A DNA stretch of 40,000 bases, taken from assembly GCA_021108275.1 (NCBI GenBank), contig JAIORD010000024.1, positions 61,172-101,171 on the forward strand, in the 5' to 3' direction. Numbering within the stretch: the first letter of the stretch is position 1; every line of letters starts with the position of its first letter. Under the pieces are notes generated by a model. It searched no databases. It was not told where the DNA came from and saw only the letters and a program-made list of their open reading frames with translations. The translations under genes and the position numbers were made by a program. Below are positions 4,533 to 27,895 of the stretch, in pieces. The stretch comes from Methanococcoides sp. (lineage in GTDB: Archaea > Halobacteriota > Methanosarcinia > Methanosarcinales > Methanosarcinaceae).

Positions 4533-4781
4533 CTAAAAGGATATAGAGAAGTTGTGCGACTGTGGTTTAGTGGTATGACCTGAGCTTCCCAAGCTTGCCT
4601 GTTTGATCGGGGAGATTTGTGAGAATGTTGTCCCCGAGTTCAACTCTGCCACCGTGTATAAAACGCTATCATGTGTAGGTGTGTTGGAGAAGACTGATCT
4701 GCATCGCAGGAATTGATGCGACACATGTAGCGCAAGGACAAATGATACCAGCTTACTTTGTGCGTACTGAGAGCTTTTCAT
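4533..4781 (-). pseudogene. int(N): N-terminal part of the partitioned integrase gene, reading through attL
   Basis: The ORF encodes ...SPIKQA-SLGSSGHTTKPQS-HNFSISF. The att-encoded SLGSSGHTTKPQS peptide is read in the same frame at attR, where it continues into the integrase frame. Confidence 0.55.
4555..4596 (+). repeat. attL: 42-bp direct repeat identical to 10913..10954 (5' half of tRNA-Gly through the anticodon arm)
   Basis: tgcgactgtggtttagtggtatgacctgagcttcccaagctt occurs exactly at both positions. The sequences diverge immediately outside the repeat. Confidence 0.9.
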
Positions 4782-5163
4782 TGAGGCTTAGACTACTGGA
4801 GCAAGGAAGGTTACTGAAGAGTTTAATTATATGATGAATAGTAAAGTTGAGTATAGGAAGAATAATTTTACCTGGGGATCTGTTCTTTTGGTTAAGGTAA
4901 GGGAGTTAAGTCATCATCTTGTGGGGAAAAGGAAAACGATTGAGTTCGGTAAGCCTGCTTATGTTGGGAAAAGGGATGATTCCGACTTGCTGAGGAAGAA
5001 GATTTTTGACATGCCTTATTCTGAATGGAAGAAGATAGGGTTCTCTAAGGGTACTTTACACTACATGGAGCAAAATGCCAGAAGTGAGAAGCCGTTTACT
5101 CTCAATGCTCATGTTAGGGAGATATTGAAGACTTGGGACAACGGGCTTAGTGTAAATGGATAG
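4766..5163 (+). pseudogene. cas1: Casposase (Cas1) C-terminal fragment, 5'-truncated and frameshifted; intact 110-codon HTH-region ORF at 4831..5163
   Basis: Nucleotide and protein homology (about 73% aa identity by eye) to the last roughly 130 codons of the intact Cas1 at 12743..13960. There is a 1-nt deletion relative to the intact copy near 4790-4796. Homology stops abruptly at 4766. Confidence 0.85.
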
Positions 5164-5310
5164 CTTACATGTAAACTCAATAGCAGTAACAGGTTTTGCA
5201 TTATGAAAGGCAATATCGATAGCAACAGAGGAGTTTAGTAATATTACTTATATTAATATTCAGGTGCTATATAACCGATAATAATATCACTAATACTCCT
5301 GAAAAGTATT

Positions 5311-7254: not shown

Positions 7255-7391
7255 TTATCCCTCTTCAATTATACTGAATGTGATTTTAATTTAAATTTGT
7301 TGACATATTTAAGGTATGGTCTGCAACAAAATTATGACAGTTCATGTTTTGCCCTAATTATAACTATAATCAAGATTTTTAATCGATAATA

Positions 7392-7444
7392 ATTGAATTA
7401 ACTTCATTCATCACTTTGAGGTACTTATTACCAGTTTCTGTAAT
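7392..7444 (-). repeat. 53-bp near-perfect copy (52/53) of the 3' coding end of the wHTH gene (8678..8730); truncated paralog remnant
   Basis: attgaattaacttcattcatca(c/t)tttgaggtacttattaccagtttctgtaat occurs at both sites. It encodes ...TETGNKYLK(V/M)MNEVNSI on the minus strand. Confidence 0.8.
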
Positions 7445-8204
7445 AGTATCGCAACACAGCATATGACGAGAACTTCTTCTTCCGTATTAGTACCGCTCAA
7501 AGACTGTCAACACTTTTGCTTTCATTATCGGTGTTTTCCGCTTTAGATATCTTAATTTCCAACAAATAGATTATCCCGAATGTTATAAGCAGTTGTGCTT
7601 AAAAGTAAAGGAACCGTTGTCAGTGAACTTATACTCCTTCCTAAAAGAGAACTTAAATTGTATATTAGTAACAAAGAAATTGCAACTAATGAAATGATAA
7701 TCGTTTTTACTTTTATTTCGTGTTTCATTTACTCCCCTCTTCCACACATACATTTTAAACAAATTCCCATTGTTGTTTTGTATACAATTAATTATGTGTT
7801 ATTTATATTTTCCCCTACGTCTTTGTGCATAATGGTCATTTGAGATAATATTATATGACATAATCCAAATTAAAGAGTGAGGGGTTAAAAAACATGGATT
7901 TTACTCAAAGATTTAATTTAAGAATTGTCGAGCTAGTGAGCAAGAATCAAAAAAATATTCGTATATTAGCTATTCTTTTGTTGATAATGACGGCAGGAAC
8001 AAAATTAGCATTAAATATTGATCCAGTATATGCACCCATGGGGACGGTGGGTGGCCTTATTTTTGGTATGAATCTAACATACTATATTTTCCAATGATAA
8101 AGCAAGGCACAAAGCAGGTCATAAACGGTATAATGGCATGCTTAGCCATTCTTTTTTTTATTTTGAAATTCAAACTTCCACGAAATACAAATGCTGTCTG
8201 TTGC

Positions 8205-8285
8205 CTTCCGTATTACATGAAACAGAATACCAAGAATTATAAGCCGTATACTCTTAATACTCATGTGAGTGAGAGGTTGAGAGAT
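8205..8285 (+). pseudogene. cas1: Second, short casposase (Cas1) C-terminal remnant
   Basis: LPYYMKQNTKNYKPYTLNTHVSERLRD aligns with LHYMKQNAMSDKPFSLNAHVKERLEN at the C-terminus of the intact Cas1. Confidence 0.65.
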
Positions 8286-8327
8286 TGCAATGCTCAAAAG
8301 GCTTTATGATAACATCATTAATAACCA

Positions 8328-8474
8328 TTAATCGTCCTTTCTCGTTCTTACAATATCAAGATAGAAATAAAGCATCAATGCGTAAATTCCAACAACAACA
8401 GCGATCGCTCCTGCGATATATCCCACGTGAGTTGAATCGAAGTCTATTATCAGATTCATTGCTTCAGCTTGCAT
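8328..8474 (-). CDS. Possible 48-aa single-pass membrane peptide (below the ORF-track size cutoff)
   Basis: Manual translation gives MQAEAMNLIIDFDSTHVGYIAGAIAVVVGIYALMLYFYLDIVRTRKDD. It has one clear hydrophobic helix followed by a basic tail, and no homology evidence. Confidence 0.25.
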   Translation of the reverse strand: MQAEAMNLIIDFDSTHVGYIAGAIAVVVGIYALMLYFYLDIVRTRKDD

Positions 8475-8637
8475 TTTTGATTCATATCGGCTATCATGTA
8501 AATAGAAATGAATATTATAGAGTCGATTGACGAAACATGGAATAAATATGTTGCCTCTTAGGACATACTTAATGAGTGTATTACAATAATAAAAAATGAA
8601 TAAGTAGCAAAAAAGAAGTCAACTGATTAAGATTGAT

Positions 8638-8967
8638 TCAATTAGTGTTAGCAACACAAAGATTTTTGTCGACAATGATTGAATTAACTTCATTCATCAT
8701 TTTGAGGTACTTATTACCAGTTTCTGTAATGTTGTATTTGTTGGAAGGTTTTTCCACCAAATTTATTTGCATCATCATGTCGAGATACTGATCCGCTCTT
8801 TTAAAATTTAAATTTGCATTATATACTATTGCAGTTTTAGTTACTTCAGATCCTTTTAAGACTTTCAATATATCCACCATTATTTCTAATTTATCTCTCG
8901 TACTCACACCACCTAAAGTTTCCAGAGGGGATGGAGGGAGACAGGTGCGCCTCCCCCATTTAATCAT
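8638..8967 (-). CDS. Winged-helix DNA-binding protein
   Basis: The pattern MVDILKVLKGSEVTKTAIVYNANLNFKRADQYLDMMMQINLVEK is typical of small archaeal wHTH regulators. The true start may be the internal M. Confidence 0.6.
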   Translation of the reverse strand: MIKWGRRTCLPPSPLETLGGVSTRDKLEIMVDILKVLKGSEVTKTAIVYNANLNFKRADQYLDMMMQINLVEKPSNKYNITETGNKYLKMMNEVNSIIVDKNLCVANTN

Positions 8968-9152
8968 ATAGTAGAGCCAACACCACCACGACTTTCATCC
9001 ATTGAACGTACCCCCGTACCCCAATTAACAAATCGTACATAGCTCGTAATATATAATAGTAGGTTTATAACATATAAACTCTCCGAATGTTTTTCGAATG
9101 TCATTATACTCATTATAATGAGGTATGGTTAAACAGGTAATGTTGATAAAAA

Positions 9153-9587
9153 TTATGAAATAAGATGATTAATGTTATCCATTTCATTTGATATAATCTT
9201 TTTAATGCCATGATTGCCTTTTTCCATAACCATATTAATCGCAACGGAAATATCTTCATGAGTAAAATCGTGGTTGATTAAGAGATGAACTACAGCATCA
9301 TGCCCATCCATACCCATTAAAATATGTGATTCCAATGCTGATGCCCATTTACATTCATTTGAACAAAAATAAAACACCTCCTCGGTATAAACTCCATCAA
9401 TATTTTCTCCATGGATTAGTTTGTGGTTGAGTGATTCCGATTCAAGTTTTTCCTTGCAGAAATTGCATCTATGCTCCAGAGATTTTATTTCCTCTGCATC
9501 TTTCTGTATACAGCATTTTTTGTATTTCTTCCCACTATTGCAGGGACATGGTTCATTCCGTCCAATCTTCATTCTATCACCGAACAA
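9153..9587 (-). CDS. SEC-C metal-binding motif protein
   Basis: N-terminal [18 protein letters not shown] (SEC-C zinc motif). The remainder is uncharacterised and has further Cys pairs. Confidence 0.6.
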
Positions 9588-9658
9588 GAATTAAATTAGA
9601 TGTATTTATAGATTTTTTTACGTTTACTTTTGTTAAATTTCAGGTTAGCAACATCGTG

Positions 9659-9934
9659 GGAATTTGATGCGACACATGCATCGCATGAATAATGCGTATC
9701 CATGTATGTACAGGGTAGATATTCCTATAGATGTCTTTATTCTTCAGGGGGATTTGCAATCTCCAGTTCGTATAAGGGTATTGTCATAACATTGTCAAAA
9801 TATATATTTCTCCTTCGGAAATGGTGTGTGTATGATCCGTGTCGCAAGGTGGGTGCTGCTATACCCATGTCGCATGGATAATTACGTTTAACGTGTGTCG
9901 CAATGATCCTGATACGTCCAATGTGTCGCATATG
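9659..9934. promoter_or_regulatory. Cluster of TGTCGCA/TGCGACA short repeats (candidate iterons or recombinase-accessory binding sites)
   Basis: gatgcgacacatgc (9666-9679), cgtgtcgcaagg (9838-9849), catgtcgcatgg (9865-9876), gtgtgtcgcaatg (9892-9904), atgtgtcgcatatg (9921-9934). A near-copy of ggaatt(t)gatgcgacacatg lies at 4708-4726 near attL. Confidence 0.4.
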
Positions 9935-10083
9935 TATTGAATAACGTCTAAATATAACCAAACGTGACTTGAGCCAGGGATTAGGGCTTGGGAAAAATTA
10001 AAACCTACATATGGACAGAATTGAACTGATACTATCCATAGCGTAGGGTCATATGTCTATACATGCACGCAATGATGATGTTA

Positions 10084-10773
10084 TCATGGTTTACGGGTAT
10101 TGATTATATCCTGTAGATTGGCAGATACTTTAGCATACGCGACCGTGGAATTGTTGAGCTTGTCTAGGTAGTTGGTCATTAGCACGGATCCATCTGTATG
10201 TCCGATCATATACTGGATCAGGGATTCTGATATACCCGCCTTGACGCATTGATCCACAAAAAAATTCCTACAATACTTCAACCCCATACCCCGTATCCTG
10301 ACATATTTCTTGACTGCGTCGATACTGATGTTAGGCTCTCGGTGTAAGGTTTCGGCAAATTCCGCGGGCATGAACGCTTTATTCGAATGTTTTTTCCCAC
10401 GGCTCCAGTCAATGTCATAGTATGCAACGTCACCCTCGATATGTAAGCACTTAACGTCAAAATTTTGGACGATAAAGATACCTTCGGTCACGCGTACACC
10501 ACTGTATAGTAAAAGTTCCATAAATTGCCGATACGTTGAATTTTGAACCGATCCCAGTACATTCTGGACATCATTTATACTCGGTACCCACGTATCTCGA
10601 TTGGTTTTCTTCATAGGCAGTGGTTTTTTCCATTCTATGGCCTGTTGCGATGTGATCAGTCCCTGATCCTCAATGAAATTGATGAAATTTCTGACTGCTT
10701 TGGCATATCCGTTCCAACCCTTTTTGACAGTGGATGATATTTGAACGATGTCGCGTCGGTCCTGAAGTGTCAC
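10084..10773 (-). CDS. Tyrosine recombinase/integrase, C-terminal catalytic part (int(C))
   Basis: Catalytic-type blocks LLYSGVRVTEG (Arg), YCRNFF, IGHTDG (His) and TNYL (Tyr). The frame stays open upstream to attR apart from one TAG at 10822-10824. Confidence 0.8.
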   Translation of the reverse strand: MTLQDRRDIVQISSTVKKGWNGYAKAVRNFINFIEDQGLITSQQAIEWKKPLPMKKTNRDTWVPSINDVQNVLGSVQNSTYRQFMELLLYSGVRVTEGIFIVQNFDVKCLHIEGDVAYYDIDWSRGKKHSNKAFMPAEFAETLHREPNISIDAVKKYVRIRGMGLKYCRNFFVDQCVKAGISESLIQYMIGHTDGSVLMTNYLDKLNNSTVAYAKVSANLQDIINTRKP

Positions 10774-10912
10774 ATCGGTAAGGTAACGATCCGTCGATCT
10801 GATATACGGTAAGGCGGTATCCTATTGCGTGCGTGCACATATCCATGATGTGAACTGGTCCCTGTGAACATTGTACAATACTGCACAACTTTTTGGAGAG
10901 TTAACGATGCCC

Positions 10913-10954
10913 TGCGACTGTGGTTTAGTGGTATGACCTGAGCTTCCCAAGCTT
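10913..10954 (+). repeat. attR: 42-bp direct repeat identical to 4555..4596
   Basis: Exact match to attL. It overlaps tRNA-Gly positions 1-41. Confidence 0.9.
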
Positions 10955-10984
10955 AGAACCCGGGTTCGAATCCCGGCAGCCGCA
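10914..10984 (+). tRNA. tRNA-Gly (anticodon CCC)
   Basis: Manual cloverleaf: acceptor GCGACTG/CAGCCGC with one A4:C69 mismatch, D-loop AGTGGTA, anticodon arm TGAGC-TTCCCAA-GCTTA, T-arm CCGGG-TTCGAAT-CCCGG, discriminator A. A T-run follows. Confidence 0.8.
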
Positions 10985-10992
10985 TCTTTTTT
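10985..10992 (+). terminator. Oligo-T terminator after tRNA-Gly
   Basis: tctttttt lies directly after the discriminator base. Confidence 0.4.
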
Positions 10993-11047
10993 GTGTATAA
11001 GTAACAGCTAGATAGATTACTTATTATAAATTTAGAGTTTGTTCGAA

Positions 11048-11068
11048 GTTCGAATCCAATCCCCCGCA
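11048..11068 (+). other. Orphan tRNA 3'-end-like remnant (T-loop plus acceptor 3' strand) at the casposon target
   Basis: gttcgaatccaatcccccgca resembles a GTTCGAATC T-loop plus a CCCCCGC-A acceptor 3' strand. No complementary 5' T-stem or 5' half lies upstream. Confidence 0.45.
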
Positions 11069-11081
11069 CAGCAAGTCGGGG
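11062..11081. repeat. Left copy of the 20-bp direct repeat flanking the casposon (target-site duplication)
   Basis: ccccgcacagcaagtcgggg is identical to 19665..19684 and directly abuts the TIR. Confidence 0.85.
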
Positions 11082-11117
11082 ATATAGGTAAGTCCATTTT
11101 TTTGTACGCGGTTGTGC
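11082..11117 (+). repeat. Casposon left terminal inverted repeat
   Basis: atataggtaagtccatttttttgtacgcggttgtgc compared with the reverse complement of 19629..19664, atataggtaacttgatttttttgtacggggttgtgc. Confidence 0.85.
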
Positions 11118-11297
11118 TGTCAATGTGCACATGCATTATTCAAATATCTTAAATATATAACACGATATTTTAATAATACCCGAATTTGTCTGAATAATAT
11201 TAAGTTATGCAATTGTATTAGAAAATATACCATGAGCGTTTTAAAGTATTTTTTACGACGTGCCTTTAAATAAAAAGAAATTTAAGAGTACTGCTGT

Positions 11298-12707
11298 ATG
11301 GAAAAAGAAGAGATTACAAAATCTATTGTTTTACCAGTAATTGTTGGAATTATTGTGCTATTAGTCTCATCTTTTGGAGTTAATTTATATATTGATCACC
11401 AAGAAACAAAAACAGAACTTGAGTATCATTTTGATCAAGCAAATAATTTTCACACCAAAGACCAATTTGAAGAAGCAATTGATGAATATGACAAGATTTT
11501 AAAAATCTCCTACAATGAATTTCCTTCTGAGTATGCATTAGCTCAAAATAATATTGGTAGCTCATACAGCCTTTTAGCCGAAATTGAAGACTCGGAAATA
11601 AATGCCGAGAATGCAATTAATTCCTACCAACAAGCCCTCGATTTTTATACAGTTGAAAAATACCCACTCGAATTTGCAAAGACACAATATGGTCTTGGAA
11701 ATGCATATTTGAATTTAGCTGAGATCAGAGATACAGAAACAAACATTGAAAACGCTATCAATGCCTTCCAAAAAGCTCTAGATGTAACTACAGTTGAGAA
11801 ATATCCAACCGGTTATGCAGCAACACAAAATAGTCTTGGAAATGCATATTTGAGTTCAGCTGAGGTAAGAGATACAGAAACAAATATTGAAAACGCTATC
11901 AATGCCTATCAAAAAGCTCTAGAGGTATCTACAATTGACACTTACCCCTTTGACTATGCGTCTACTCAAAATAATCTTGGGAATGCATATTTTAGTTTAG
12001 CTGAGGTAAGAGATACAGAAACAAATATTGAAAACGCTATCAATGCGTATCAAAAAGCTCTAGAGGTATCTACAATTGAAACTTACCCCTTCGAATATGC
12101 GTCTACTCAAAATAATCTTGGAAATGCCTATAAGAGTTTAGCTGAGATCCGAGACAAGAAAATAAACATTGAAAAAGCTATTAATACCTATCAAAAATCA
12201 CTAGAAGTATTTACAGTTGAAAAATATCCTCTTAGATATGCAGCAACTCAAATTAATCTTGGAAGCGCATATAGGGTTTTAGCTGAGGCTAGAGATACGG
12301 AAACAAATTCTGAACATGCTATTAATGCCTATCAAAAATCACTAGACATATATACAGTTGAGAATTATCCATTAATCTATGCTGGAACCCAAAATAATCT
12401 TGGGAATGCATATAGGGTTTTGGCTGAGGTTAGAGATACGGAAACAAATGCTGAACATTCCATTGCAGCGTTCCAAAAAGCTCTAGAAGTATATACAGTT
12501 GAAAAATATCCAATTAATTATGCAGATACTCAAAATAATCTTGGAACAGCATATATGGTCTTGTCAGGGGTTAGGAATAAAGAAACAAATGTTGAAAACG
12601 CTATTATTGCCTTCCAAAAAGCTCTAAACGTATATATATCCGAGGAATATCCTATAAAATATAATAATACATTAAATAATATTAAAAAAGCTATGGAATT
12701 TGGTTAA
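11298..12707 (+). CDS. Membrane-anchored TPR-like repeat protein (about 8.3 tandem 47-aa repeats), casposon cargo
   Basis: N-terminal TM helix (IVLPVIVGIIVLLVSSFGV), then repeats of YAxTQNNLGNAYxxLAEVRDTETNIENAINAYQKALEVxTxExYP. The units starting at 11859 and at 12000 are near-identical at the DNA level. Confidence 0.8.
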   Translation: MEKEEITKSIVLPVIVGIIVLLVSSFGVNLYIDHQETKTELEYHFDQANNFHTKDQFEEAIDEYDKILKISYNEFPSEYALAQNNIGSSYSLLAEIEDSEINAENAINSYQQALDFYTVEKYPLEFAKTQYGLGNAYLNLAEIRDTETNIENAINAFQKALDVTTVEKYPTGYAATQNSLGNAYLSSAEVRDTETNIENAINAYQKALEVSTIDTYPFDYASTQNNLGNAYFSLAEVRDTETNIENAINAYQKALEVSTIETYPFEYASTQNNLGNAYKSLAEIRDKKINIEKAINTYQKSLEVFTVEKYPLRYAATQINLGSAYRVLAEARDTETNSEHAINAYQKSLDIYTVENYPLIYAGTQNNLGNAYRVLAEVRDTETNAEHSIAAFQKALEVYTVEKYPINYADTQNNLGTAYMVLSGVRNKETNVENAIIAFQKALNVYISEEYPIKYNNTLNNIKKAMEFG

Positions 12708-12742
12708 GTCCAATATGCAACTTAATCCTATAAATTTTATTT

Positions 12743-13960
12743 TCATAAATCAAGCCTAAACCCCTTTCCCCAATTTTCCAATCTTTCCTTCACATGAGCA
12801 TTCAAACTAAATGGCTTATCACTCATAGCGTTCTGTTTCATGTAATGTAAAGTACCTTTAGAAAACCCCATCTTCTTCCATTCAGTATAAGGCATGTCAA
12901 TGATCTTCTTCCTCAACAGATCAGTATCATCCCTCTCACCCACATAAACAGGTTTGCTAAACTCAACAGTTTTTCTCTTTCCTACAAGTTGATGACTTAA
13001 TTCCCTTGCTTTAACCAAAAGAACAGATTCCCAAGAACTATTCTTCTTCCTATACTCAACTTTGCCATTCATCATAGAATTAAACTCTTCAGTAACCTTC
13101 CTTGCTCCAGTAGGTTTGAGCCTCAATGAAAAGCTCTCAGTCCTGATAAAATCCTTACTATCCATAACTCCTTTTTCAATCAAGTTCATTACAGTAAGAT
13201 CCACAATGAACCTGAATGGTTCTTGGAGATCATAGGCTAAACTGTTCTTACTTGGATTCATCTCATGAAGAAAACCTACATGAGCATCAAGACCAACTGA
13301 ATTGATGGCTCTCAGGCATTCAGATTCAAGTAATGCATAACCATAATTAAGCATAACATTGACTTTATCTCCTGAGTTAGAAGCTCTGGCATTATTATCA
13401 GTCCTTGCTCTGAAATCGTATTCATCAGGAATAGCTTTTGCATACTCATTCCAGTACTTCCAAGCAACTCCACCTTCAATCCCAAGTATCTCTCTTACAG
13501 ATTTAGTATTCTCAAGTTTACTCTTATCAACGGAGAAATCATAATCAATCTCAGGATACCTTTGTTTAAGGTAATTAAGGACAGTTTCAGATTTGGAGAA
13601 CTTGGCTTCAATGAACTTCTTAGCAAGCTTTACTCTTGTATCCTGATCTTCATAAGCATGGTATTGAGCAAACTTTGTCTTGACATTAGTACTTTCAGAA
13701 GGAAGCATTGTTGTTAGAAGTTTACCGTTCCAATCTAGTATAGTGATCTGTACATTGTGTTTAATCAACCATCTGATAGCTTCAAAGCTTAGAGATCCAC
13801 TTCTTCCATACACAACAATACTATCAATATCCATCCTCTTTGGAGAGAATACATACTCTTCAGGTTCTTCAGTTGCTGAAAATCTGCCATCTTTGATATG
13901 GAGTTTAGCACCATCAACACGCATGTTAATTCCGTGACCGTTTAGAAGTAACAATTTCAT
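12743..13960 (-). CDS. cas1: Cas1-family integrase (casposase) with C-terminal HTH extension
   Basis: 405 aa with Cas1 hallmark blocks YALLESECLRAINSVGLDAHVGFLHE....SLAYDLQEPFRFIVD. It lies inside a TIR-bounded element and has no cas2 or CRISPR partner. Confidence 0.9.
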   Translation of the reverse strand: MKLLLLNGHGINMRVDGAKLHIKDGRFSATEEPEEYVFSPKRMDIDSIVVYGRSGSLSFEAIRWLIKHNVQITILDWNGKLLTTMLPSESTNVKTKFAQYHAYEDQDTRVKLAKKFIEAKFSKSETVLNYLKQRYPEIDYDFSVDKSKLENTKSVREILGIEGGVAWKYWNEYAKAIPDEYDFRARTDNNARASNSGDKVNVMLNYGYALLESECLRAINSVGLDAHVGFLHEMNPSKNSLAYDLQEPFRFIVDLTVMNLIEKGVMDSKDFIRTESFSLRLKPTGARKVTEEFNSMMNGKVEYRKKNSSWESVLLVKARELSHQLVGKRKTVEFSKPVYVGERDDTDLLRKKIIDMPYTEWKKMGFSKGTLHYMKQNAMSDKPFSLNAHVKERLENWGKGFRLDL

Positions 13961-13966
13961 TAGAAA

Positions 13967-14914
13967 TCACCATCCTCTAACATTATCTTTAAAAGGATCT
14001 TCTTTCATTCCAAGATTAATAAGAGATCTAACTCGAATCTCAGCAATGAATTGAGCAGGCTCATCTTCACCATCAAGCCTTAATTGTTCTTCAAAATTGT
14101 ATAGTTCTTCTCGATGTTCTTCTATTATGTTAGCTGTGTACTCTGATTCATAATCATGAACTATATCATGAAGATTTTCTAAAGTCTCAGCATCCTTCTT
14201 GAGTCTTTCAATAACAGACGCATCATTGTAATGTCCAAGTAAATAGATGATATGAGTTCTAAGATTTGTATATCTTGTCAATGGTTCAGGGTATCTATCT
14301 AATAATAATCTAAGATTTTCAATTGTCTCAGATTCATTAGCAGGATCAATGTTCTTTTTATCAATATAAGTATAAATTATTCTGAGAATATGTTCAATTA
14401 AAGTAATATCATCAGCTTTAAGTTGAGATACAAGCAGGTCTAATTGCTTTGGATTAAGAACATAATTCTGTTCATATCTTTCAATCTCTTTCAAAGCCAT
14501 TTTTTGCTGAATAGGATTATTAAATTTAAGTTTATTAATGACAGAATCTAAATGAGATAATATTTCTTCAGTTCGTCTTAATGTAACATAACAAGAACGT
14601 TTATCTTCATCTTTTATTCCAAATTGTTGGAGATCTTCAAACTTCAACACAAGTAGAATTCCTTTGCCCTGCATGTCATAGAGTTTTCTTTGAATATTTT
14701 CAACGCTATAGCCTCTGGTTTTCTTAAATTTAGTTCTTAATTTTTCAATGAGATCCCGTTTTCTTATAAAAGGGATAGTTTGTAAGATCGAAATCACATT
14801 ATACTCAAACTCATTAGTATTTTTATAAGAATTATAGTTATTCTTATCTGTATTTATATTCAAATTCATACTCAAACTTATAGTTAAATTTGATACAAAT
14901 AGGTATTGGTGCAT
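13967..14914 (-). CDS. Hypothetical casposon protein with N-terminal winged-helix-like region
   Basis: ORF of 315 aa; the likely start is the internal MNLNINT at 14869. It lies directly upstream of cas1 on the same strand (cas1 start 13960 is 6 nt below its stop at 13967). I recognise no family. Confidence 0.55.
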   Translation of the reverse strand: MHQYLFVSNLTISLSMNLNINTDKNNYNSYKNTNEFEYNVISILQTIPFIRKRDLIEKLRTKFKKTRGYSVENIQRKLYDMQGKGILLVLKFEDLQQFGIKDEDKRSCYVTLRRTEEILSHLDSVINKLKFNNPIQQKMALKEIERYEQNYVLNPKQLDLLVSQLKADDITLIEHILRIIYTYIDKKNIDPANESETIENLRLLLDRYPEPLTRYTNLRTHIIYLLGHYNDASVIERLKKDAETLENLHDIVHDYESEYTANIIEEHREELYNFEEQLRLDGEDEPAQFIAEIRVRSLINLGMKEDPFKDNVRGW

Positions 14915-14931
14915 ATATTAACTTGATTAAC

Positions 14932-15081
14932 ATGGATTCAATAAACGATACACAAAGAGTTCTTGCAACTCTCTCTCCTTACATCAAGGAGAAACTAGTA
15001 CAGATGTCAGATAAATTTGGATGCTCTCAGGCTGAAGTTGTCAGGATAGCATTGTTGAAGCTTTGGGAGGCTGAGAAATGA
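14932..15081 (+). CDS. Ribbon-helix-helix (CopG/Arc-like) DNA-binding protein
   Basis: MDSINDTQRVLATLSPYIKEKLVQMSDKFGCSQAEVVRIALLKLWE has a beta-strand/helix/helix pattern. It is the first gene of the operon leading to polB, and its stop overlaps the next start (ATGA). Confidence 0.6.
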   Translation: MDSINDTQRVLATLSPYIKEKLVQMSDKFGCSQAEVVRIALLKLWEAEK

Positions 15082-15716
15082 CTCTCAAGCGATTCTCAAA
15101 GGATTATAAGAACTATGGAGATTGGCTTAAAGCTCAACCAAGAACTTCAGAATATGCTAAAAGAGTAGTCAGGTTTCATGAAAAATTTCCAACTCTCAGC
15201 CTGAATGATTTGAGAAATACAAGACTCAAAGATCATAATCTAAGTACAGTTTCATGGAAAGTTCTGAAAGCACAACAAAAGAGAGATAGGAAACTATCCC
15301 TTGAAGTTCTCAGAACTATGAGGAAAGGGATTTCATTTTCAAAGGCAATTGAGAAAACAGGAGCTAACAAGAAGAACATAATTAGTAATCTTGGAAAATA
15401 CCTGTACAAATCAAAAGGGAAATGGAGAGTAACAGCTTCAGATAGAATTGAATCTGAAATGATGTTCTATGATAGAGATAAGGGCTTGATCTCTATTGTT
15501 GCAACAAGATCAAAAGATAGGAGCTTAATTGCTGAATATTTCAATGCTGTTAATCAAGCGTTGAGATCTAATGATACAAAGTTTTTGAAGAAATTTGAAA
15601 ATGCAACAGTCATTGATGCTGAAGGTAATGAGCATTATTTTGTAACAGACTTGGAAAGACTTTATGAGATTCAGGATGCACAGGAAGAGCCTGAATTCTT
15701 TGAATTATATGTTTAA
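15078..15716 (+). CDS. Hypothetical casposon protein with a putative HTH
   Basis: 212 aa. The segment LEVLRTMRKGISFSKAIEKTGANKKNIISNLG is HTH-like. It is translationally coupled within the RHH-HNH-polB operon. Confidence 0.5.
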   Translation: MTLKRFSKDYKNYGDWLKAQPRTSEYAKRVVRFHEKFPTLSLNDLRNTRLKDHNLSTVSWKVLKAQQKRDRKLSLEVLRTMRKGISFSKAIEKTGANKKNIISNLGKYLYKSKGKWRVTASDRIESEMMFYDRDKGLISIVATRSKDRSLIAEYFNAVNQALRSNDTKFLKKFENATVIDAEGNEHYFVTDLERLYEIQDAQEEPEFFELYV

Positions 15717-15732
15717 TTGGAGAGTGGATACT

Positions 15733-16065
15733 ATGGATAAAGAAGCTTACAGGAAGAATATTAGCAAGTACAAGAAAGGGAAGAAACCACCTATTGCATG
15801 TTCAGTATGTGGAGAAGATAATTCAGAAGTTATTGAAATGCACCATGTTGATGGAAGAAATACTTCAGATTGGGTAAAACCACTATGCAAGAATTGTCAT
15901 GCTAAGATTACAGCAGAACAGAATAAGATCAGTCCAAAGAAGAGATCTAAAACAACATCCTCAGAAAATCTAACAGCTTTCAACATCATTTCCATTGGTG
16001 CTTTGCTAAAACTACTTGGAGACCGTTTAATCAATCTTGGAATGGAGATGACTGTAAATGTCTAA
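15733..16065 (+). CDS. HNH endonuclease
   Basis: CSVCGEDNSEVIEMHHVDGRNTSDWVKPLCKNCHAKIT (Cys pairs plus HH...N...H). A GGAG-like RBS precedes the ATG at 15733, and the gene overlaps the polB start. Confidence 0.8.
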   Translation: MDKEAYRKNISKYKKGKKPPIACSVCGEDNSEVIEMHHVDGRNTSDWVKPLCKNCHAKITAEQNKISPKKRSKTTSSENLTAFNIISIGALLKLLGDRLINLGMEMTVNV

Positions 16066-18730
16066 GATCGCTGTTAGAGGATATACTCAGAAGATCAAGA
16101 AATCTTCAGTTAATCCTTTTTTCAAACCAAAGGATGTTCCATTAAGGCATGATAGGGTATTAGCCTTTGATACTGAAACAACAATAGATCAAAATCAGAA
16201 TTTTAAGATAGGACATTTCAAGATAAAACAGAATGGGTATATTCAGCATGAAGGTATGTTTTATGATACTTCTATGCTTACCGATGTTGAAATAAAAGTA
16301 TGTGAAGTATATACTTCAGAGCATGATATACCACTTTATACTCTAAATGAATTCATTGATGAGGTATTTTATCCTGAAATATTTGGTTTGAAAACTCTTT
16401 GTATTGGCTTCAACCTTCCCTTTGATATTAGCAGGATCTCTAAAAGAGTTGGAGATTCAAGAGGGAGAAATAAAGGAGGATTTACTTTTACACTTTCAGA
16501 TAATAGGTTCAATCCTCCTATTATTGTTACAAAAATGGGAGATGCTTCTAATTTTAAATTTACATCAACCAAGATAAACAAAGGAAAAGATAAATTTTCA
16601 GGTTATTTCCTTGATGTTCAAAAGTTAGCAGAGGTATTGCTCCAGAAGAAGCATATTTCACTTGATAAAGCATGTGAGATGCTTAATACCAATGTCAAAA
16701 AGATGAAAAATATTAAGCATGGAAAAGTAACTGAGAAATACATTGATTATTTGATTGCTGATGTTGAATCTACATATCAAGTTTATGAAAAATTGATTGA
16801 TGAGCTTGATCTTTATCAGATAAATATCCCACCAACTAAGATATTCAGTTCTGCGTCAATTGGCAAACAATCTCTTAAACAATTGGGTATTCAGTCATTT
16901 TTAGATCTTAACCCTGAATTTTCTTCAGAAACCATTGGAAACAACATGACTTCTTACTATGGGGGAAGATGTGAATGTAAGATCAGAAAAGAACCTACAA
17001 AAGTTACAGTTCTTGATTTTACAAGCATGTATCCAACTGTTACAATGATGATGGATCTCTGGAAATTCATGATAGCTGAATCTCTTGAAACTAAGGATGT
17101 TACTAATGAGATAAAGGACATGTTATCAAACCTAAACCTTAATTATCTTCAAAATAAGGGCAACTGGAATGATCTTGTTGTAATGGTAAAGTTACATGCG
17201 GAAGATGATATTTTACCTGTAAGGATGGATTATAAGGGTAATAATACAGGTTATAACGTTGGGGTAAATTACCTTAGTTCTGGTAATGAATTATGGTACG
17301 CTTTACCTGATGTAATTTCATCTGTTCTATTAACGGGTAAAGTTCCTAAGATCATTGAAGCTATTAGGTATATTCCAAAAGGTATTCAGAAAGGTTTGAA
17401 GAAATCTCAAATTCTTGGAATTGATATTGATCCTACAAAAGATAATCTTGTTCAGGTACTTGTTGAAGCAAGACAGAATCTTAAAATTCAAATGAAGAGC
17501 ATTGATAAAGAAGATCCTGAATATCAACAATTGAAAAGCAGGGCACAGGCTATTAAGATTTTAGTTAATGCCATGAGTTATGGAATTTTCATTGAGCTTA
17601 ATCCTGAAGATAAGAAAAGTGATATTCAAGTTTATGGATTGGATGAGTTCAATACTTCTGAGAACAGGTTTGAGAAAGCAGGAAATTATTTTCATCCTTT
17701 ACTTGCTGTCATGATTACAGCAGGATCTAAATTGTTCTTGGCAATGGCTGAAGCTAAATTAAAAGAACTTGGTTCAGTTCATGCTTACATGGATACAGAT
17801 TCTATTTTTGTTCCTCCTGAACATGCTCAAGAGATTATTAATTATTTCCAACCTCTCAATCCTTACAGTCTTGATATTGATCTGTTGAAAGCTGAGAAAG
17901 AAGATATGTGGTTTTATGGAATCTCATCAAAAAGATATGCACTTTATAATCTTGAAGATGGAGAAATCAAGTTCATGGATGGAGAGAGATCTTTCAAATT
18001 GCATGGACTTGGACATTTAACAAATCCATTTCCAAAGGCTGTTGAAGATTGGCAGGCTGAGATATGGGAAGATATTCTTAAACTTCATTATGGAATGATC
18101 TCTGAAGCTGATATTGAAGAGAAGTATTCAAATATGTATGCTATTTCAAGGCTTACTGTTTCAACTCCAAATGTTTTGCATAGGTTTGATACGATTAATA
18201 AAGGCAAGGAATGGGAAGATCAAATCAAATCATTCAATTTCTATCATGTTGGGTTTCAGGTTGCTGAAGAAGATGGTAAGGCAGTCAAGCCTTTATCTCC
18301 TTTCTCAAATGATCCTCAAAGTATTGTTTATGAACCATTTATTGATTATGGAACAGGCGAAATCAAGGAAGGATCACATTATTTCAAACCATTGAGTAGG
18401 ACAATAATGCAGTATGTGGAACATCTTGAGCATAAGTTTGATGGAGATATTGGTATTCTTGAAAGAAAGCATGTACATGCTGATTCTGTTATTTATATTG
18501 GAAAGGAAGCCAATAATATTGATGAACAGGAATTGGATGTAAAGAAGGCTCAAGAGTTTGTTGATGAGAAGTTAGTTTATGGTTTTATTTTGAATCTTAC
18601 TCCTGAGAAAGCAAGGGAGATTGGAATTAAACATAGAAGTGCTTTGGCTTATTTGAAGAAAAAAGCAAAGGAGGGAGATTTAAATTTTAGGTCTAGGAAC
18701 GTAAAGATAATAGTTAAATCTGTAAATTAA
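16058..18730 (+). CDS. polB: Family B DNA polymerase (casposon PolB)
   Basis: 890 aa with Exo I AFDTETT, motif B KILVNAMSYGIF and motif C YMDTDSIFV. Confidence 0.92.
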   Translation: MSKIAVRGYTQKIKKSSVNPFFKPKDVPLRHDRVLAFDTETTIDQNQNFKIGHFKIKQNGYIQHEGMFYDTSMLTDVEIKVCEVYTSEHDIPLYTLNEFIDEVFYPEIFGLKTLCIGFNLPFDISRISKRVGDSRGRNKGGFTFTLSDNRFNPPIIVTKMGDASNFKFTSTKINKGKDKFSGYFLDVQKLAEVLLQKKHISLDKACEMLNTNVKKMKNIKHGKVTEKYIDYLIADVESTYQVYEKLIDELDLYQINIPPTKIFSSASIGKQSLKQLGIQSFLDLNPEFSSETIGNNMTSYYGGRCECKIRKEPTKVTVLDFTSMYPTVTMMMDLWKFMIAESLETKDVTNEIKDMLSNLNLNYLQNKGNWNDLVVMVKLHAEDDILPVRMDYKGNNTGYNVGVNYLSSGNELWYALPDVISSVLLTGKVPKIIEAIRYIPKGIQKGLKKSQILGIDIDPTKDNLVQVLVEARQNLKIQMKSIDKEDPEYQQLKSRAQAIKILVNAMSYGIFIELNPEDKKSDIQVYGLDEFNTSENRFEKAGNYFHPLLAVMITAGSKLFLAMAEAKLKELGSVHAYMDTDSIFVPPEHAQEIINYFQPLNPYSLDIDLLKAEKEDMWFYGISSKRYALYNLEDGEIKFMDGERSFKLHGLGHLTNPFPKAVEDWQAEIWEDILKLHYGMISEADIEEKYSNMYAISRLTVSTPNVLHRFDTINKGKEWEDQIKSFNFYHVGFQVAEEDGKAVKPLSPFSNDPQSIVYEPFIDYGTGEIKEGSHYFKPLSRTIMQYVEHLEHKFDGDIGILERKHVHADSVIYIGKEANNIDEQELDVKKAQEFVDEKLVYGFILNLTPEKAREIGIKHRSALAYLKKKAKEGDLNFRSRNVKIIVKSVN

Positions 18731-18878
18731 TGGCTCTGTAGAAATCCTCTAAATTCATATAATTATGCTTATCAATAAAACTTCAAAACGTAGCTCTGAA
18801 TCTTGCTTACTTTTGCTGAATTTTGATTATAGATGTTGATTTAGATAGGTTTTCTACAAAGTCAAATTTTGTTCTTTA

Positions 18879-19325
18879 TTACAAAGGTGCTGGTATAAAT
18901 ACTCCAGGTGTTACCCAACTAGAGCCCAAACCGACCCCCTTTCCCTTATCCATGCTCTTCATCAATGTAAATTCTAGCGCAACGTACGCTGCTATAAGAG
19001 GCGCCACTGGCGCAAGCGGTGGAATTGCTGCTATCATACCTCCAACTGCGATAGTAATATCCCCTACAGTGTTTAAGTCATTCATAACAGGTTCTGGGAA
19101 TCTAATTATATACCCCCACCAGTAGCCCTTGAACGAAACAACATCTTTCTTAGCTTGAACTGCTAATTCTTTCTTGAAACTTTGTTCAATATGTTCTAAT
19201 TTAAGCATGTCCAAATTATTTTCTTTATAAATTTTAGAGATGTTTTCATGTAATAGTTTACGAAATTCTACATCTTCTTCAAATTTTTGCCCCATTGCTT
19301 GACTCATGCTTTCAAATTCATTCAT
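18879..19325 (-). CDS. Hypothetical protein with a Gly/Ala/Pro-rich hydrophobic C-terminal half (casposon cargo)
   Basis: 148 aa: an N-terminal charged helical region, then GDITIAVGGMIAAIPPLAPVAPLIAAYVALEF. I recognise no family. Confidence 0.45.
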   Translation of the reverse strand: MNEFESMSQAMGQKFEEDVEFRKLLHENISKIYKENNLDMLKLEHIEQSFKKELAVQAKKDVVSFKGYWWGYIIRFPEPVMNDLNTVGDITIAVGGMIAAIPPLAPVAPLIAAYVALEFTLMKSMDKGKGVGLGSSWVTPGVFIPAPL

Positions 19326-19628
19326 TCTATTTCACTCCCTATTAATTTTAACATGTTCAATCTTATTATTTAGGATTGAACAGTATTAAATTATAACATG
19401 AAAATCTAAACTATATATACATAATTGTAATTAATTTACACAGAGGTATATTATTTAACTCAATAATATGTATTAAAATCTTATGCATCACGCATAATCA
19501 AGTGTACAAAGTCTATATCTTTTTCTTGAACATCATGAGATCTTTTTAATGCCATTTCACACCTTCCTTTATTGTGGGGTTTTTTGAAACATTGAAATTA
19601 TAGGCAATTCAGGTTTTGAATTATACTT

Positions 19629-19664
19629 GCACAACCCCGTACAAAAAAATCAAGTTACCTATAT
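19629..19664 (-). repeat. Casposon right terminal inverted repeat
   Basis: Its reverse complement matches 11082..11117 at 32 of 36 positions. Confidence 0.85.
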
Positions 19665-19684
19665 CCCCGCACAGCAAGTCGGGG
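19665..19684. repeat. Right copy of the 20-bp direct repeat (target-site duplication)
   Basis: ccccgcacagcaagtcgggg is identical to 11062..11081. Confidence 0.85.
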
Positions 19685-19740
19685 TAATAGTAATAGCCAA
19701 AAAACGCAACCATTCTAAATCCCCTTTAAAAAAATAAAAG

Positions 19741-21111
19741 TTATAAAGTGGTTTCTTTGTAATTTTCTAGTTTATTTAGAAATGGTTTATCTTTGTAGTT
19801 AAGAATAGTAAGAAGTGTCCTGTCAATAAAAAAGACCAATCTTGTATATTCTTCATAAGGATCTATGGCTCTTGTATCTAATTCTTCAGGAAATTTTCCA
19901 TCGTGTACTACTTTGTTTCTAAGTCTCATAAGGCTCTTATCTTCCGAAGTACAATCAATACGATATTTTTTGATAAGTGCATTTAACTTGTCATCAAAAG
20001 TTGTGTGTGGATATGCAATAGATTCTACAATTTTATCTATAATTTCATCTTCAAGAGGAACATCCTCTTTTTTGAGAACCTTTATCAATTTCTTTTTTGT
20101 TGACTTTTGCAAACTGGGAACAATAGTTTCTCCAATCGTTTCAAGGTAATTTTCAAAATTACTTAGTAAACTTTCTACAGCAACAAACATCAGCATAAAT
20201 TTTGCTTCAGTATATGGAGTGACCCCCGATGTTAAATATAAGGATATGATGGCATTTAACCGAAGTGTATTTTTGTATTCTTGATAACTATCATATGTAG
20301 TTTCTAAAAAGTATTTTATGGAACAGGAGGTTGGGGAATCGACATCAATTAGTTGGTCAGAACCGTTATAAGTATGTGCAAGCACTGGATTTAAAGTAGT
20401 TTTAATTATCCTACCCTCATAAAAATGATCCTCATATATCGGGCTTATGTAATTTCTAGTAGCTAATGATAACAGCCTTGATATATCAAAAATAATCTCT
20501 TTAGATTCATCTGTGCTATCAATCGATAGATTAACAATTGCTTCAGCAGTGACAAAACAGCCTTTTTTTTCAGTTAAACGACTTTTGATTTCAGCATAGT
20601 TTTCTACTTTTTTGAATAGAAATGACAAATCTCTTATATTTGCTTTGAATTTGTCTAATATTCTACTTCTACCATTTTTCGAATATTCACATCCTAAAAA
20701 TACAAAATTTGTAAGCCCATAATGACTTTCAACGTCAATTGACTTTTCATCAGAATAAACAATGTCGACATTTGATAAGCAAATCATTGATACTTTGTTT
20801 TTTACGTTTTCTCCAGATTTAGCTGATAAACCTGACGAAGTGACTAACAAACCCTCAATAGAAATGTGCCCAATTTCATTATTTTTATCCACAATAGAAC
20901 CGTTTAAATCTCCTTCTACAGAAGATTCTACCATGGTAAGTGTAGATAAATTTTCTTTTGTTAGCGCAAATTCTGTATGTACAATTATTCTTGAGTTTGA
21001 AAAAAATAAGAGTGTGAATTTAGCCTTTTGTTCGCATAATTTATCAGTCTTAAACGTAAAAGTTCCTTCCCCATTATATTCTCTTAATACCTCAGAATCC
21101 ATAATTTCCAA
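19741..21111 (-). CDS. Orphan 456-aa protein with a C-terminal HEPN-like domain (Rx4H), ApeA-like architecture
   Basis: C-terminal helical region FVAVESLLSNFE ... SLMRLRNKVVHDGKF contains R398-x4-H403 (codons at 19918-19920 and 19903-19905). The large N-terminal domain has no motif I can name. Confidence 0.6.
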   Translation of the reverse strand: MEIMDSEVLREYNGEGTFTFKTDKLCEQKAKFTLLFFSNSRIIVHTEFALTKENLSTLTMVESSVEGDLNGSIVDKNNEIGHISIEGLLVTSSGLSAKSGENVKNKVSMICLSNVDIVYSDEKSIDVESHYGLTNFVFLGCEYSKNGRSRILDKFKANIRDLSFLFKKVENYAEIKSRLTEKKGCFVTAEAIVNLSIDSTDESKEIIFDISRLLSLATRNYISPIYEDHFYEGRIIKTTLNPVLAHTYNGSDQLIDVDSPTSCSIKYFLETTYDSYQEYKNTLRLNAIISLYLTSGVTPYTEAKFMLMFVAVESLLSNFENYLETIGETIVPSLQKSTKKKLIKVLKKEDVPLEDEIIDKIVESIAYPHTTFDDKLNALIKKYRIDCTSEDKSLMRLRNKVVHDGKFPEELDTRAIDPYEEYTRLVFFIDRTLLTILNYKDKPFLNKLENYKETTL

Positions 21112-21230
21112 TCTCCAACATGAAGCAACAGGTTAATCTCTAAAATTTACTCTTAGAGGATAAATACTCTGCTAAACATATATATTTGTTTACAAAGTGT
21201 TTGGTCAAATAAAAAAAGAAAGGGTAAGAA

Positions 21231-21509
21231 TCAGAATCCACTTACCAATTTCCTCACTTCCTTTGTCCTGAAATTAAACTTCCCACCACTCAAAATCCTA
21301 TCTTTCATCCGTTTCAAACTGCTCCTCTGCATAACTCCATATTCCCTTGCTTCCTTTGGAGTCAGAGCCAATATCTTCCTCATGATCTCTTTCTCATCAA
21401 CAAATAACTGAGCCTTCTTCACATCAAGTTCCTCCTCATCAATGTTGTTGGCTTCCTTGCCAATGTAAACAATTCCATCAGCATGAACATGTTTCCTTTC
21501 AAGAACTTC
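21231..21509 (-). pseudogene. polB: Casposon PolB C-terminal fragment (about 93 codons), orientation opposite to the intact polB
   Basis: Manual translation VLERKHVHADGIVYIGKEANNIDEEELDVKKAQLFVDEK...LTPKEAREYG...FNFRTKEVRKLV aligns with the intact PolB tail ILERKHVHADSVIYIGKEANNIDEQELDVKKAQEFVDEK...LTPEKAREIG...LNFRSRNVKIIV. Homology ends near 21509. Confidence 0.8.
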
Positions 21510-27428: not shown

Positions 27429-27895
27429 TCTCATCGTAGACGGCATATACAAAGGACTGTCGGAACTAGCAACACCACATTATTACTTATAGTAATTAAT
27501 TAACGACACCGTTATATAGTATTATGAATAACTTGTGGTTACAGGTGATAATACAATGAGTCGTGTAATTGGTCTAAATACCCATTCATTTACGGTTGTC
27601 GCAAGAAAGTTTGCAGACAGGATTTTTAATGCTCTTTTTGTTAATGGTGAACATTCCATGTCCATGGGCCTCTACAGTTGCCCTGGCGGTTCCTGCAGAT
27701 CTTCAGTTGCAGAGAATATAGTTGATGAAAATTAAGGTATGAATACCCCCAATAAATACGAGGGGATATAGGCAGCTCTTATTTTTTGTATGCTGGTTTT
27801 CCGCCTTATTTTAGAGTTTTGACTATAATCTAAAAAGGAGCCATAAATAATATCGCATATCATTGATAACAGGAATAAAGAAAAGAGGGGAAATC

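Follow-up and report, generated by a model that had tools for sequence, protein, structure and literature searches.

A 40-kb stretch of DNA from a Methanococcoides species (contig JAIORD010000024.1, positions 61,172 to 101,171; hereafter the window) contains, at 11079-19667, an element that we identify, with a probability of roughly 0.93, as an intact family-2 casposon with 39-nt terminal inverted repeats (TIRs) and a target site duplication (TSD) of 14 bp, inserted at a reused site. The CRISPR adaptation machinery is proposed to descend from casposons, of which, to our knowledge, only a few have well-defined ends. The features of family 2 (Krupovic et al. 2014) found here are a Cas1 homolog with a helix-turn-helix (HTH) domain that is not linked to CRISPR, a family B DNA polymerase (PolB), an HNH nuclease gene beside polB, TIRs, and a TSD. 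These features support the assignment to the family-2 casposons of the Methanosarcinales that had been made in an earlier account of this DNA (the preliminary description). That account was also correct that the class itself is not new, the class being already known biochemically, structurally, and in vivo. What is new is an intact Methanococcoides example of a kind of element that is already well described, and this copy can serve the genus as a reference in which the boundaries of TIRs and TSD are exact. Its ends and its casposase gene are defined by the following features.

11065-11078, plus strand: left copy of the 14-bp TSD, in the same register as the perfect 14-bp TSDs of six related elements
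11079-11117, plus strand: left (Cas1-side) TIR, 39 nt, GGGATATAGGTAAGTCCATTTTTTTGTACGCGGTTGTGC (nhmmer E 5e-09 with a profile built from foreign TIRs only)
12743-13960, minus strand: casposase, a Cas1 homolog with a C-terminal HTH, 405 aa (PF01867, 3.7e-69)
19629-19667, minus strand: right (PolB-side) TIR, 39 nt (nhmmer E 3.2e-09, profile likewise from foreign TIRs only)
19668-19681, plus strand: right copy of the 14-bp TSD, CGCACAGCAAGTCG, a perfect match to the left copy

The element so defined spans 8,589 bp. Its TIRs are identical at 35 of 39 positions and have the termini GGG/CCC, and its GC content is about 32%, compared with 40 to 50% in the outer host flanks. The preliminary description had drawn the ends differently, reporting a 20-bp direct repeat, CCCCGCACAGCAAGTCGGGG, at 11062-11081 and 19665-19684 and, inside it, a 36-bp inverted repeat (11082-11117 and 19629-19664) with 32 of 36 positions identical. 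Both repeats are present as reported. The 20-mer occurs exactly twice in the window and not at all in shuffled controls, with no occurrence expected by chance, and a repeat search can extend the inverted repeat to 41 nt at 90% identity, because the ends of the direct repeat are palindromic. The junctions are not an assembly artefact, since contigs assembled independently of one another agree exactly there: L002 and L004 span the right one, and L007 and L008 the left one, all four coming from public assemblies of sequencing runs and metagenomes. The claim of an element with intact ends, bounded by TIRs and a TSD, accordingly stands, while the limits of 20 bp and 36 bp give way to the 14 bp and 39 nt set by six related elements. 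Judged by these sequence comparisons, the mechanistic TSD is CGCACAGCAAGTCG, which is 14 bp long rather than 20 and opens with the known CGCA motif. In the left copy of the 20-mer, the element itself contributes GGG, its terminus, and CCC comes from the acceptor-like end of the tRNA-like sequence beside it; in the right copy, CCC is the terminus of the element and GGG is the first three bases of an adjacent solo TIR. The apparent 20-bp repeat, with three additional nucleotides on either side of the 14, thus arises because the element has a tRNA-like flank on its left and a solo TIR on its right.

The relatives that set these boundaries came from a single metagenome scan with the window Cas1, which gave 28 loci, and from M. 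burtonii, which was fetched separately; the TIR family was assembled by scanning with the TIR core and then searching with profiles. The outer terminus of this family is conserved as GGG(A/T)(T/A)ATAGGTAAC, and the TIR termini in the window fit the consensus. All six related elements for which both ends were available have a perfect 14-bp TSD in the same register, beginning with CGCA in five of the six and with CTCA in MetBur-C1 of M. burtonii (locus L006).

L014: CGCATCGAAAAATT
L017: CGCACCTGGTTTTT
L016: CGCACCTGGTTTTC
L021: CGCACCATTCACTT
L012: CGCATAGAAAGTCG
M. burtonii (L006): CTCATAACAAGTCG

The junctions of L014 are particularly clean. On its left, a real tRNA-Leu end (...CCCT) is followed by CGCATCGAAAAATT and then by GGGATATAG, and on its right CTATATCCC is followed by CGCATCGAAAAATT and then by TTTAAGG; this assigns the GGG/CCC bases to the element and leaves a duplication of exactly 14 bp. 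In M. burtonii, an unoccupied pseudo-tRNA-Leu 3' end (L006 15283-15320, minus strand) reads GGTTCGAATTCTCCCT, CGCACAGCAAGTCG, TCGATG, so that a 14-mer identical to the window TSD is followed by TCG instead of GGG.

The Cas1 homolog had been recognized in the preliminary description by the motifs GFLHE and SLAYDLQEPFR, both of which are present in the translation, and the Cas1 profile search was positive. Its best match among solved structures is the casposase of M. mazei (PDB 6OPM; E 5.7e-189, 631 bits, ~70% identical), compared with E 5.7e-39 and 138 bits for the best-matching CRISPR Cas1 structure, 4N06. Residues 1-397 align with residues 18-414 of 6OPM without large gaps, and the alignment runs beyond residue 294, where the Pfam Cas1 domain ends, and through the C-terminal HTH extension that had also been proposed and that this full-length alignment supports. 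The window Cas1 is thereby the predicted ortholog of the solved M. mazei casposase. Its nearest proteins are from Methanococcoides (M. burtonii, 92%), followed by Methanolobus, Methanohalophilus, Methanosarcina, and other methanogens. No identical protein is listed in a large protein database; at the nucleotide level, a 100% match is found in a JGI metagenome contig, L010.

A cas1 gene could also be what is left of a CRISPR-Cas adaptation module, with the surrounding repeats unrelated to it. The protein passes the generic Cas1 model TIGR00287 (228 bits) and matches the PADLOC Cas1 model, and public databases label all of its homologs "CRISPR-associated endonuclease Cas1." Every CRISPR-subtype NCBIfam Cas1 model, by contrast, scores far below its cut-off, and the orthology to a structurally characterized casposase is full length and includes the HTH, which CRISPR Cas1 proteins lack (PMC4046053). 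Moreover, this Cas1 is constantly linked to PolB, HNH, and TIRs in more than 10 related loci. As the preliminary description had noted, searches of the 40-kb window turned up no CRISPR-like spaced repeats, no cas2, and no other cas genes among the larger open reading frames (ORFs). The idea of a CRISPR remnant is effectively refuted.

The remaining genes of the casposon lie on both sides of cas1.

11298-12707, plus strand: tetratricopeptide repeat (TPR) cargo protein, 469 aa, with a hydrophobic N-terminus (Pfam TPR_12, 1.3e-22)
13967-14914, minus strand: conserved core protein, 315 aa, upstream of cas1 and in the same orientation (94% in L012, 70% in M. burtonii)
14890-15081, plus strand: small conserved ORF, 63 aa, kept in all related casposons
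15078-15716, plus strand: conserved core protein, 212 aa (86 to 89% in L012 and M. burtonii; no Pfam or PHROG match)
15664-16065, plus strand: HNH endonuclease, 133 aa, CxxC...HH...N...CxxCH (95% identical to M. burtonii)
16058-18730, plus strand: family B DNA polymerase, 890 aa (PF03175, 1.5e-12; PF00136, 5e-05)
18879-19325, minus strand: cargo ORF, 148 aa (no match in Pfam, NCBIfam, PADLOC, or PHROGs)

The preliminary description had placed cas1 at 12743-13960, divergent from an operon of the genes for the 63-aa, 212-aa, HNH, and PolB proteins, and the ORFs lie as it stated. The core genes are colinear and full length relative to those of M. burtonii, L012, L014-L018, and L021, among more than 10 loci in total. 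The PolB motifs AFDTETT, KILVNAMSYG, and YMDTDS that had been singled out are all present, the PolB profile search was positive, and the exonuclease and polymerase motifs are intact in a protein that aligns over its full length with the PolB of L012 and M. burtonii (85 to 87%). Its sole PDB match, 5MDN, is weak (E 4e-04), and its 87% identity to a published family-2 PolB suggests that it would belong to the PolB3-related clade. The HNH protein falls below the Pfam gathering score (E 0.005) and matches the PADLOC ZorE HNH model (2.4e-05); it is present in all related loci. For the small ORF, the real start likely gives a product of 49 aa. The 212-aa protein keeps its position in more distant casposons, where it is 36 to 71% identical, and the 315-aa protein always adjoins cas1 in the loci compared; both are positional orthologs of conserved family-2 proteins, with no HTH or HEAT domain detected by Pfam or PHROGs, and the 315-aa protein is, judged by its position, probably the "HTH + HEAT" protein of family 2. 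For the HTH and HEAT domains of these two proteins, as for the PolB3 affinity and the C-terminal HTH of PolB, the identity of 70 to 95% to MetBur-C1, itself published as a family-2 casposon, is indirect support. Pfam lends no support to the labels ribbon-helix-helix (RHH) for the 63-aa protein and HTH for the 212-aa protein that had been proposed earlier. Of the cargo described there as unexplained, the 148-aa ORF remains so, with no match in the libraries and, among the loci examined, an occurrence only in contigs of the same organism, whereas TPR proteins are known from Methanosarcina casposons (PMC4779613). The TPR gene contains about seven tandem 141-nt (47-aa) repeats (Tandem Repeats Finder, period 141 x 7.2), and a homolog of its product (62%) is encoded by the L021 casposon.

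Several observations weigh against the interpretation of the element as an intact casposon with a 14-bp TSD. At the window locus taken by itself, lengths of 14 and 20 bp cannot be told apart, because both predict the same empty site, ...TTCGAATCCAATCCCCCGCACAGCAAGTCGGGGTAATAGTAATAGCC.... The left and right TIRs are unlike at 4 of 39 positions. When species-representative genomes, among which the source genome is evidently not included, were searched with the 20-mer of the predicted empty site, the only match was a chance one in Paracoccus onchidii; a 17-mer found no match in viral contigs. Every contig of this organism carries the occupied site, so that the element may be fixed and immobile, and no second identical copy was found in another context. 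Finally, Pfam, NCBIfam, PADLOC, and PHROGs revealed no HTH, RHH, or HEAT fold in the 63-, 212-, and 315-aa proteins, and BLASTP gave no similarity between the C-termini of Cas1 and PolB, the published C-terminal HTH of PolB going undetected. The first of these points bears on a reading in which the casposon is genuine but its integration duplicates 20 bp, CCCCGCACAGCAAGTCGGGG, and its TIRs are 36 nt long and open with ATATAGG. The 20-mer is, after all, perfectly repeated, MetBur-C1 likewise has a perfect 20-bp repeat (CCCCGACTTGTTATGAGGGG), and the survey of 2014 gave TSDs of up to 27 nt, with 22 nt for MetTin-C1. Set against this, the repeat of L014 is exactly 14 bp, with bases outside it that differ on both sides while GGG/CCC stay with the element; in L021, the adjoining element opens with GAG and the repeat is still 14 bp; and TCG follows the 14-mer at the unoccupied site of M. 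burtonii. In the window, the extra GGG on the right is the start of the adjoining solo TIR and the extra CCC on the left is tRNA-like acceptor sequence, and the 70%-identical M. mazei casposase joins its ends with 14-bp offsets in vitro (PMC6977970). We therefore regard a 20-bp duplication as quite improbable and retain the 14-bp TSD.

A stronger challenge comes from the possibility that the element is a former casposon that has become fixed in its lineage and no longer transposes, in spite of reading frames that look intact. The four metagenome and sequencing-run assemblies yielded only occupied junctions, neither an empty allele nor a second copy was found, the TIRs match at only 35 of 39 positions, and the hotspot is full of decayed casposons, represented by solo TIRs and by pieces of Cas1 (4795-5157) and PolB (21243-21506). 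Against a fossil speak the six core ORFs, all of which are full length relative to their homologs, the intact catalytic motifs of Cas1, HNH, and PolB, the identity of the two TSD copies at 14 of 14 positions, and TIR termini that fit the family consensus. The four differences between the left and right TIRs are also shared with the TIR variants of M. burtonii, which identifies them as polymorphisms of functional ends rather than as decay. We consider immobility a serious possibility that falls somewhat short of even odds. The preliminary description had called this copy mobile-competent, and the full-length core ORFs and identical TSD copies on which it relied are borne out; mobility itself is an inference, neither an empty allele nor a second copy having been found, and it is plausible for this copy at present. 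The JGI contig with the 100% match (L010; Ga0255388_1222, 4716 bp) consists of parts of the casposon at 100% identity in rearranged order: Cas1 is followed by the TPR gene's final 71 codons, then by 72 codons from the gene for the 315-aa protein, and then by PolB codons 1-628. This contig stems either from a deletion derivative present in the population or from misassembly at repeats.

If the biochemistry of the M. mazei and A. boonei enzymes applies to the window element, the Cas1-HTH casposase would bind the conserved TIR termini and read the tRNA-like sequence upstream of CGCA, the two 3'-OH ends would be joined to the two target strands 14 bp apart, and gap repair would then create the duplication (PMC6977970, PMC5137440). 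From the literature on casposons generally, the element would be copied by its own PolB, and the HNH nuclease and the small conserved proteins might help in excision or targeting.

The closest relative found is MetBur-C1, in which the corresponding proteins are 92% (Cas1), 87% (PolB), 95% (HNH), 89% (212 aa), and 70% (315 aa) identical. The two elements share gene order, homologous TIRs, and a homologous pseudo-tRNA followed by a ...CAAGTCG target. They differ in cargo, a 234-aa ORF and a PIN protein in MetBur-C1 versus the TPR protein and the 148-aa ORF in the window, and MetBur-C1 lies in an array with further casposons and insertion sequence elements. MetBur-C1 was published as 566998..573184 (6,187 bp) without TIR or TSD (Table S1, PMC4046053), and the M. 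burtonii casposons were again said to be without TIRs and TSDs in a later report (PMC4779613). We find that MetBur-C1 does have homologous TIRs and the perfect 14-bp TSD CTCATAACAAGTCG, within an apparent 20-bp repeat. Its revised coordinates are CP000300 565958-574390 (L006 3817-12249), giving a length of 8,433 bp, and it abuts the TIR of an adjoining casposon, GGGTAATAGGTAAC.... Casposons of M. burtonii that were published without TIRs and TSDs are thus shown to have them. Two TIR variants, ...GTAAGTC... and ...GTAACTTG..., are kept in both the window and M. burtonii, with the AAGTC and AACTTG forms on opposite ends relative to the core genes. This swap between the TIRs of the window (11079-11117 and 19629-19667) and those of L006 (3817 and 12249) suggests an exchange or inversion between ends.

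The M. mazei casposons MetMaz-C1 and MetMaz1FA1A3-C2 encode a casposase ~70% identical to that of the window over its full length, including the HTH. They duplicate 14 bp of target beginning with CGCA, the final 4 bp of tRNA-Leu being part of this TSD, and offsets of 14 bp were obtained in vitro (PMC4779613, PMC6977970). The elements of the two genera are alike in having a 14-bp TSD that starts with 5'-CGCA, a target at or resembling the 3' end of tRNA-Leu, tandem insertion at a TSD that had been used before, solo TIRs, TPR cargo, and tyrosine integrase elements alongside. The window element differs in host genus and in TIR sequence, its 14-mer ends with ...AAGTCG rather than being AT rich, and in place of a functional tRNA-Leu gene it targets a pseudo-tRNA remnant of 20 nt that lies downstream of a tRNA-Gly gene. 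The combination of ~70% identity to the crystallized M. mazei enzyme with other TIRs and a pseudo-tRNA target makes it useful for tests of end and target recognition. AciBoo-C1 of Aciduliprofundum boonei, also of family 2, has the same Cas1-HTH, PolB, and HNH architecture (PMC5137440, PMC6614799), a 14- to 15-bp TSD, and an insertion site right at the 3' terminus of a tRNA gene; it is a distant relative with a tRNA-Pro target, a thermophilic host, and other cargo. CRISPR Cas1-Cas2 shares the homologous Cas1 catalytic domain and an analogous chemistry, in which two 3'-OH ends are joined across a staggered target beside a leader-like recognition sequence. The window differs from CRISPR-Cas systems in having neither Cas2 nor an array, in a duplication of 14 bp versus 25 to 50 bp, and in an insert that is 8.6 kb long and carries genes, versus a spacer of ~30 bp. 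An analogy with Tn7-type transposons has been drawn (PMC4046053, PMC4779613): these, too, insert just downstream of the end of a conserved gene without disrupting it, and the reuse of one attachment site leads to islands of intact and decayed copies. They differ in using DDE TnsB and TnsA proteins unrelated to Cas1 and in encoding no polymerase of their own.

The target of the window element lies 62 nt downstream of tRNA-Gly, and the casposon is bordered there by a tRNA-like end on the left and by remains of an older casposon on the right.

11049-11068, plus strand: pseudo-tRNA-Leu 3' end, TTCGAATCCAATCCCCCGCA, T-loop-like and acceptor-like, ending in CGCA
19682-21509: older, inverted, truncated casposon, made up of a solo TIR, a 456-aa ORF, and a PolB fragment and cut off at 21509
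19682-19710: solo TIR of this older casposon, GGGTAATAGTAATAGCCAAAAAACGCAACC (nhmmer E 0.0049, profile of foreign TIRs)
19741-21111, minus strand: its 456-aa ORF
21243-21506, minus strand: its PolB C-terminal fragment (tblastn with PolB aa 800-886, 59%, E 4e-25)

The window TSD CGCACAGCAAGTCG is preceded by TTCGAATCCAATCCCC and opens with the last four bases (CGCA) of the pseudo-tRNA-Leu end. ARAGORN and Rfam report no tRNA gene at 11049-11068, and at this locus only tRNA-Gly(CCC) at 10913-10986. The arrangement of a tRNA-like end, 10 nt, and then a TIR recurs at about 20 junctions of related loci, the tRNA-like end being that of a real tRNA-Leu gene in L014, L016, L017, and L021 and a remnant at many others. 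The flanking host genes indicate a Methanococcoides related closely to M. vulcani (rhodanese, 92%). At this locus, Methanococcoides sp. FTZ1 has SepSecS, tRNA-Gly, LysE, and rhodanese and is free of casposon DNA. The window is homologous to FTZ1 up to 10991 and again from 21602 on, and to M. vulcani again from 21509 on; the DNA that follows tRNA-Gly, about 10.5 kb, is therefore an insertion, and the element is absent from the orthologous locus in both FTZ1 and M. vulcani. The site that the intact casposon entered was already occupied by a casposon. Such tandem use of one target has been described for Methanosarcina (PMC4779613) and has been seen experimentally for MetMaz-C1 (PMC10359463).

The region just upstream also carries mobile DNA. 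A perfect 42-nt direct repeat (4555-4596 and 10913-10954) corresponds to the 5' 42 nt of tRNA-Gly(CCC), and an archaeal tyrosine integrase gene (PF16795, 10084-10773, minus strand) lies just inside its right copy. Window positions 4555-10954 look like an integrated element of ~6.4 kb with an attachment (att) site in the 5' part of tRNA-Gly. In FTZ1, tRNA-Gly directly follows SepSecS and the integrase element is absent. Inside this element, a second casposon remnant occupies window positions 4766-8098, with a Cas1 C-terminal fragment at 4795-5157 (aa 284-404, 75%) followed by a PAS histidine kinase gene at 5311-7254 (minus strand) and by further DNA; this DNA matches, at 82 to 93% identity, the cargo region of the casposon in L011, an element with a Cas1 that shares 97% identity with that of the window. 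A tiny Cas1-like HTH fragment is found at 8211-8288. The integrase element also contains a 68-nt direct repeat (93% identical) at 7377-7444 and 8663-8730, 1.3 kb apart, one copy of which falls within a winged-helix gene at 8638-8967. Further downstream, a solo casposon TIR, GGGATATAGGCAGCTCTTATTTTTTGTATGCTGG, preceded by CCCCAATAAATACGAG, lies at 27763-27800 in intergenic DNA, with the YdjM and methyltransferase genes on either side; a profile that drew on the TIRs of other loci alone detects it (nhmmer E 6.5e-05), and no partner TIR or flanking repeat was found for it. At the orthologous hotspot of M. vulcani (CAAGSJ010000004, L038 7043-8517), the integrase genes are not those of the window, and a 3' remnant of tRNA-Gly, 46 nt long (8345-8390), is present along with a Cas1 C-terminal fragment of ~100 nt (7057-7153); the same locus therefore gathers mobile elements in a sister species. 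The window thus documents a casposon graveyard at one tRNA hotspot beside an integrase element, with tandem, inverted, truncated, and solo-TIR copies.

Two further ideas about the left flank were set aside. A degenerate solo TIR ("S1") between tRNA-Gly and the pseudo-tRNA, at 10995-11047, is speculation: scores as good as its own were reached by 249 of 2000 shuffles and by 159 of 2958 segments drawn at random from the window, the profile of foreign TIRs misses it, and there is no second copy of CGCATCTTTTTTGT in the window. In its favor, a 14-bp target following tRNA-Gly would stop close to position 10991, the point at which the homology to FTZ1 breaks off. Derivation of the pseudo-tRNA itself from a decayed reverse-complement TIR was rejected, the likeness extending to only a few bases; longer versions of the pseudo-tRNA in L011, L034, and M. 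burtonii resemble the 3' halves of tRNA-Leu, which speaks against that idea.

The pseudo-tRNA-Leu 3' end, together with a 14-mer of the form CGCA-YARMAAGTCG, stands beside casposon ends in unrelated contexts (the window, M. burtonii, L011, L012, L021, and L037). Between a real tRNA-Leu and the casposon, we also observed head-to-tail modules composed of a ~55-nt TIR, a pseudo-tRNA 3' end, and a CGCA-type 14-mer (L021 3078-3261 and 12863-12876; L016 106-119 and 17587-17856; L011 1721-2033), and those of L021 and L016 fall inside the TSD-bounded unit. An internal pseudo-tRNA near one terminus is not a general trait, being absent from the clean single elements of the window, L006, L012, L014, and L017. 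The modules could reflect composite transposition, nested insertion and recombination, or carry-over of the TSD, and for carry-over of the TSD with flanking target DNA there is an experimental hint from MetMaz-C1 (PMC10359463). That casposons of this lineage carry their own landing site along, by composite transposition from outer solo TIRs or by carry-over of the TSD and target, seems to us unlikely on present evidence. If it were true, carriage of the landing site would seed new targets and build head-to-tail TIR-like repeats with short unique segments between them, and CRISPR-like arrays would then have a concrete natural path of origin. Casposon biology as now pictured is unchanged by the window element, and these recurrent TIR and pseudo-tRNA modules are the point with some potential. 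In M. burtonii, pseudo-tRNA fragments at L006 12260-12279 and 15283-15320 bracket a 3-kb segment encoding a resolvase and an HTH_23 protein. The pseudo-tRNA fragments and modules may be att remnants of small integrative elements.

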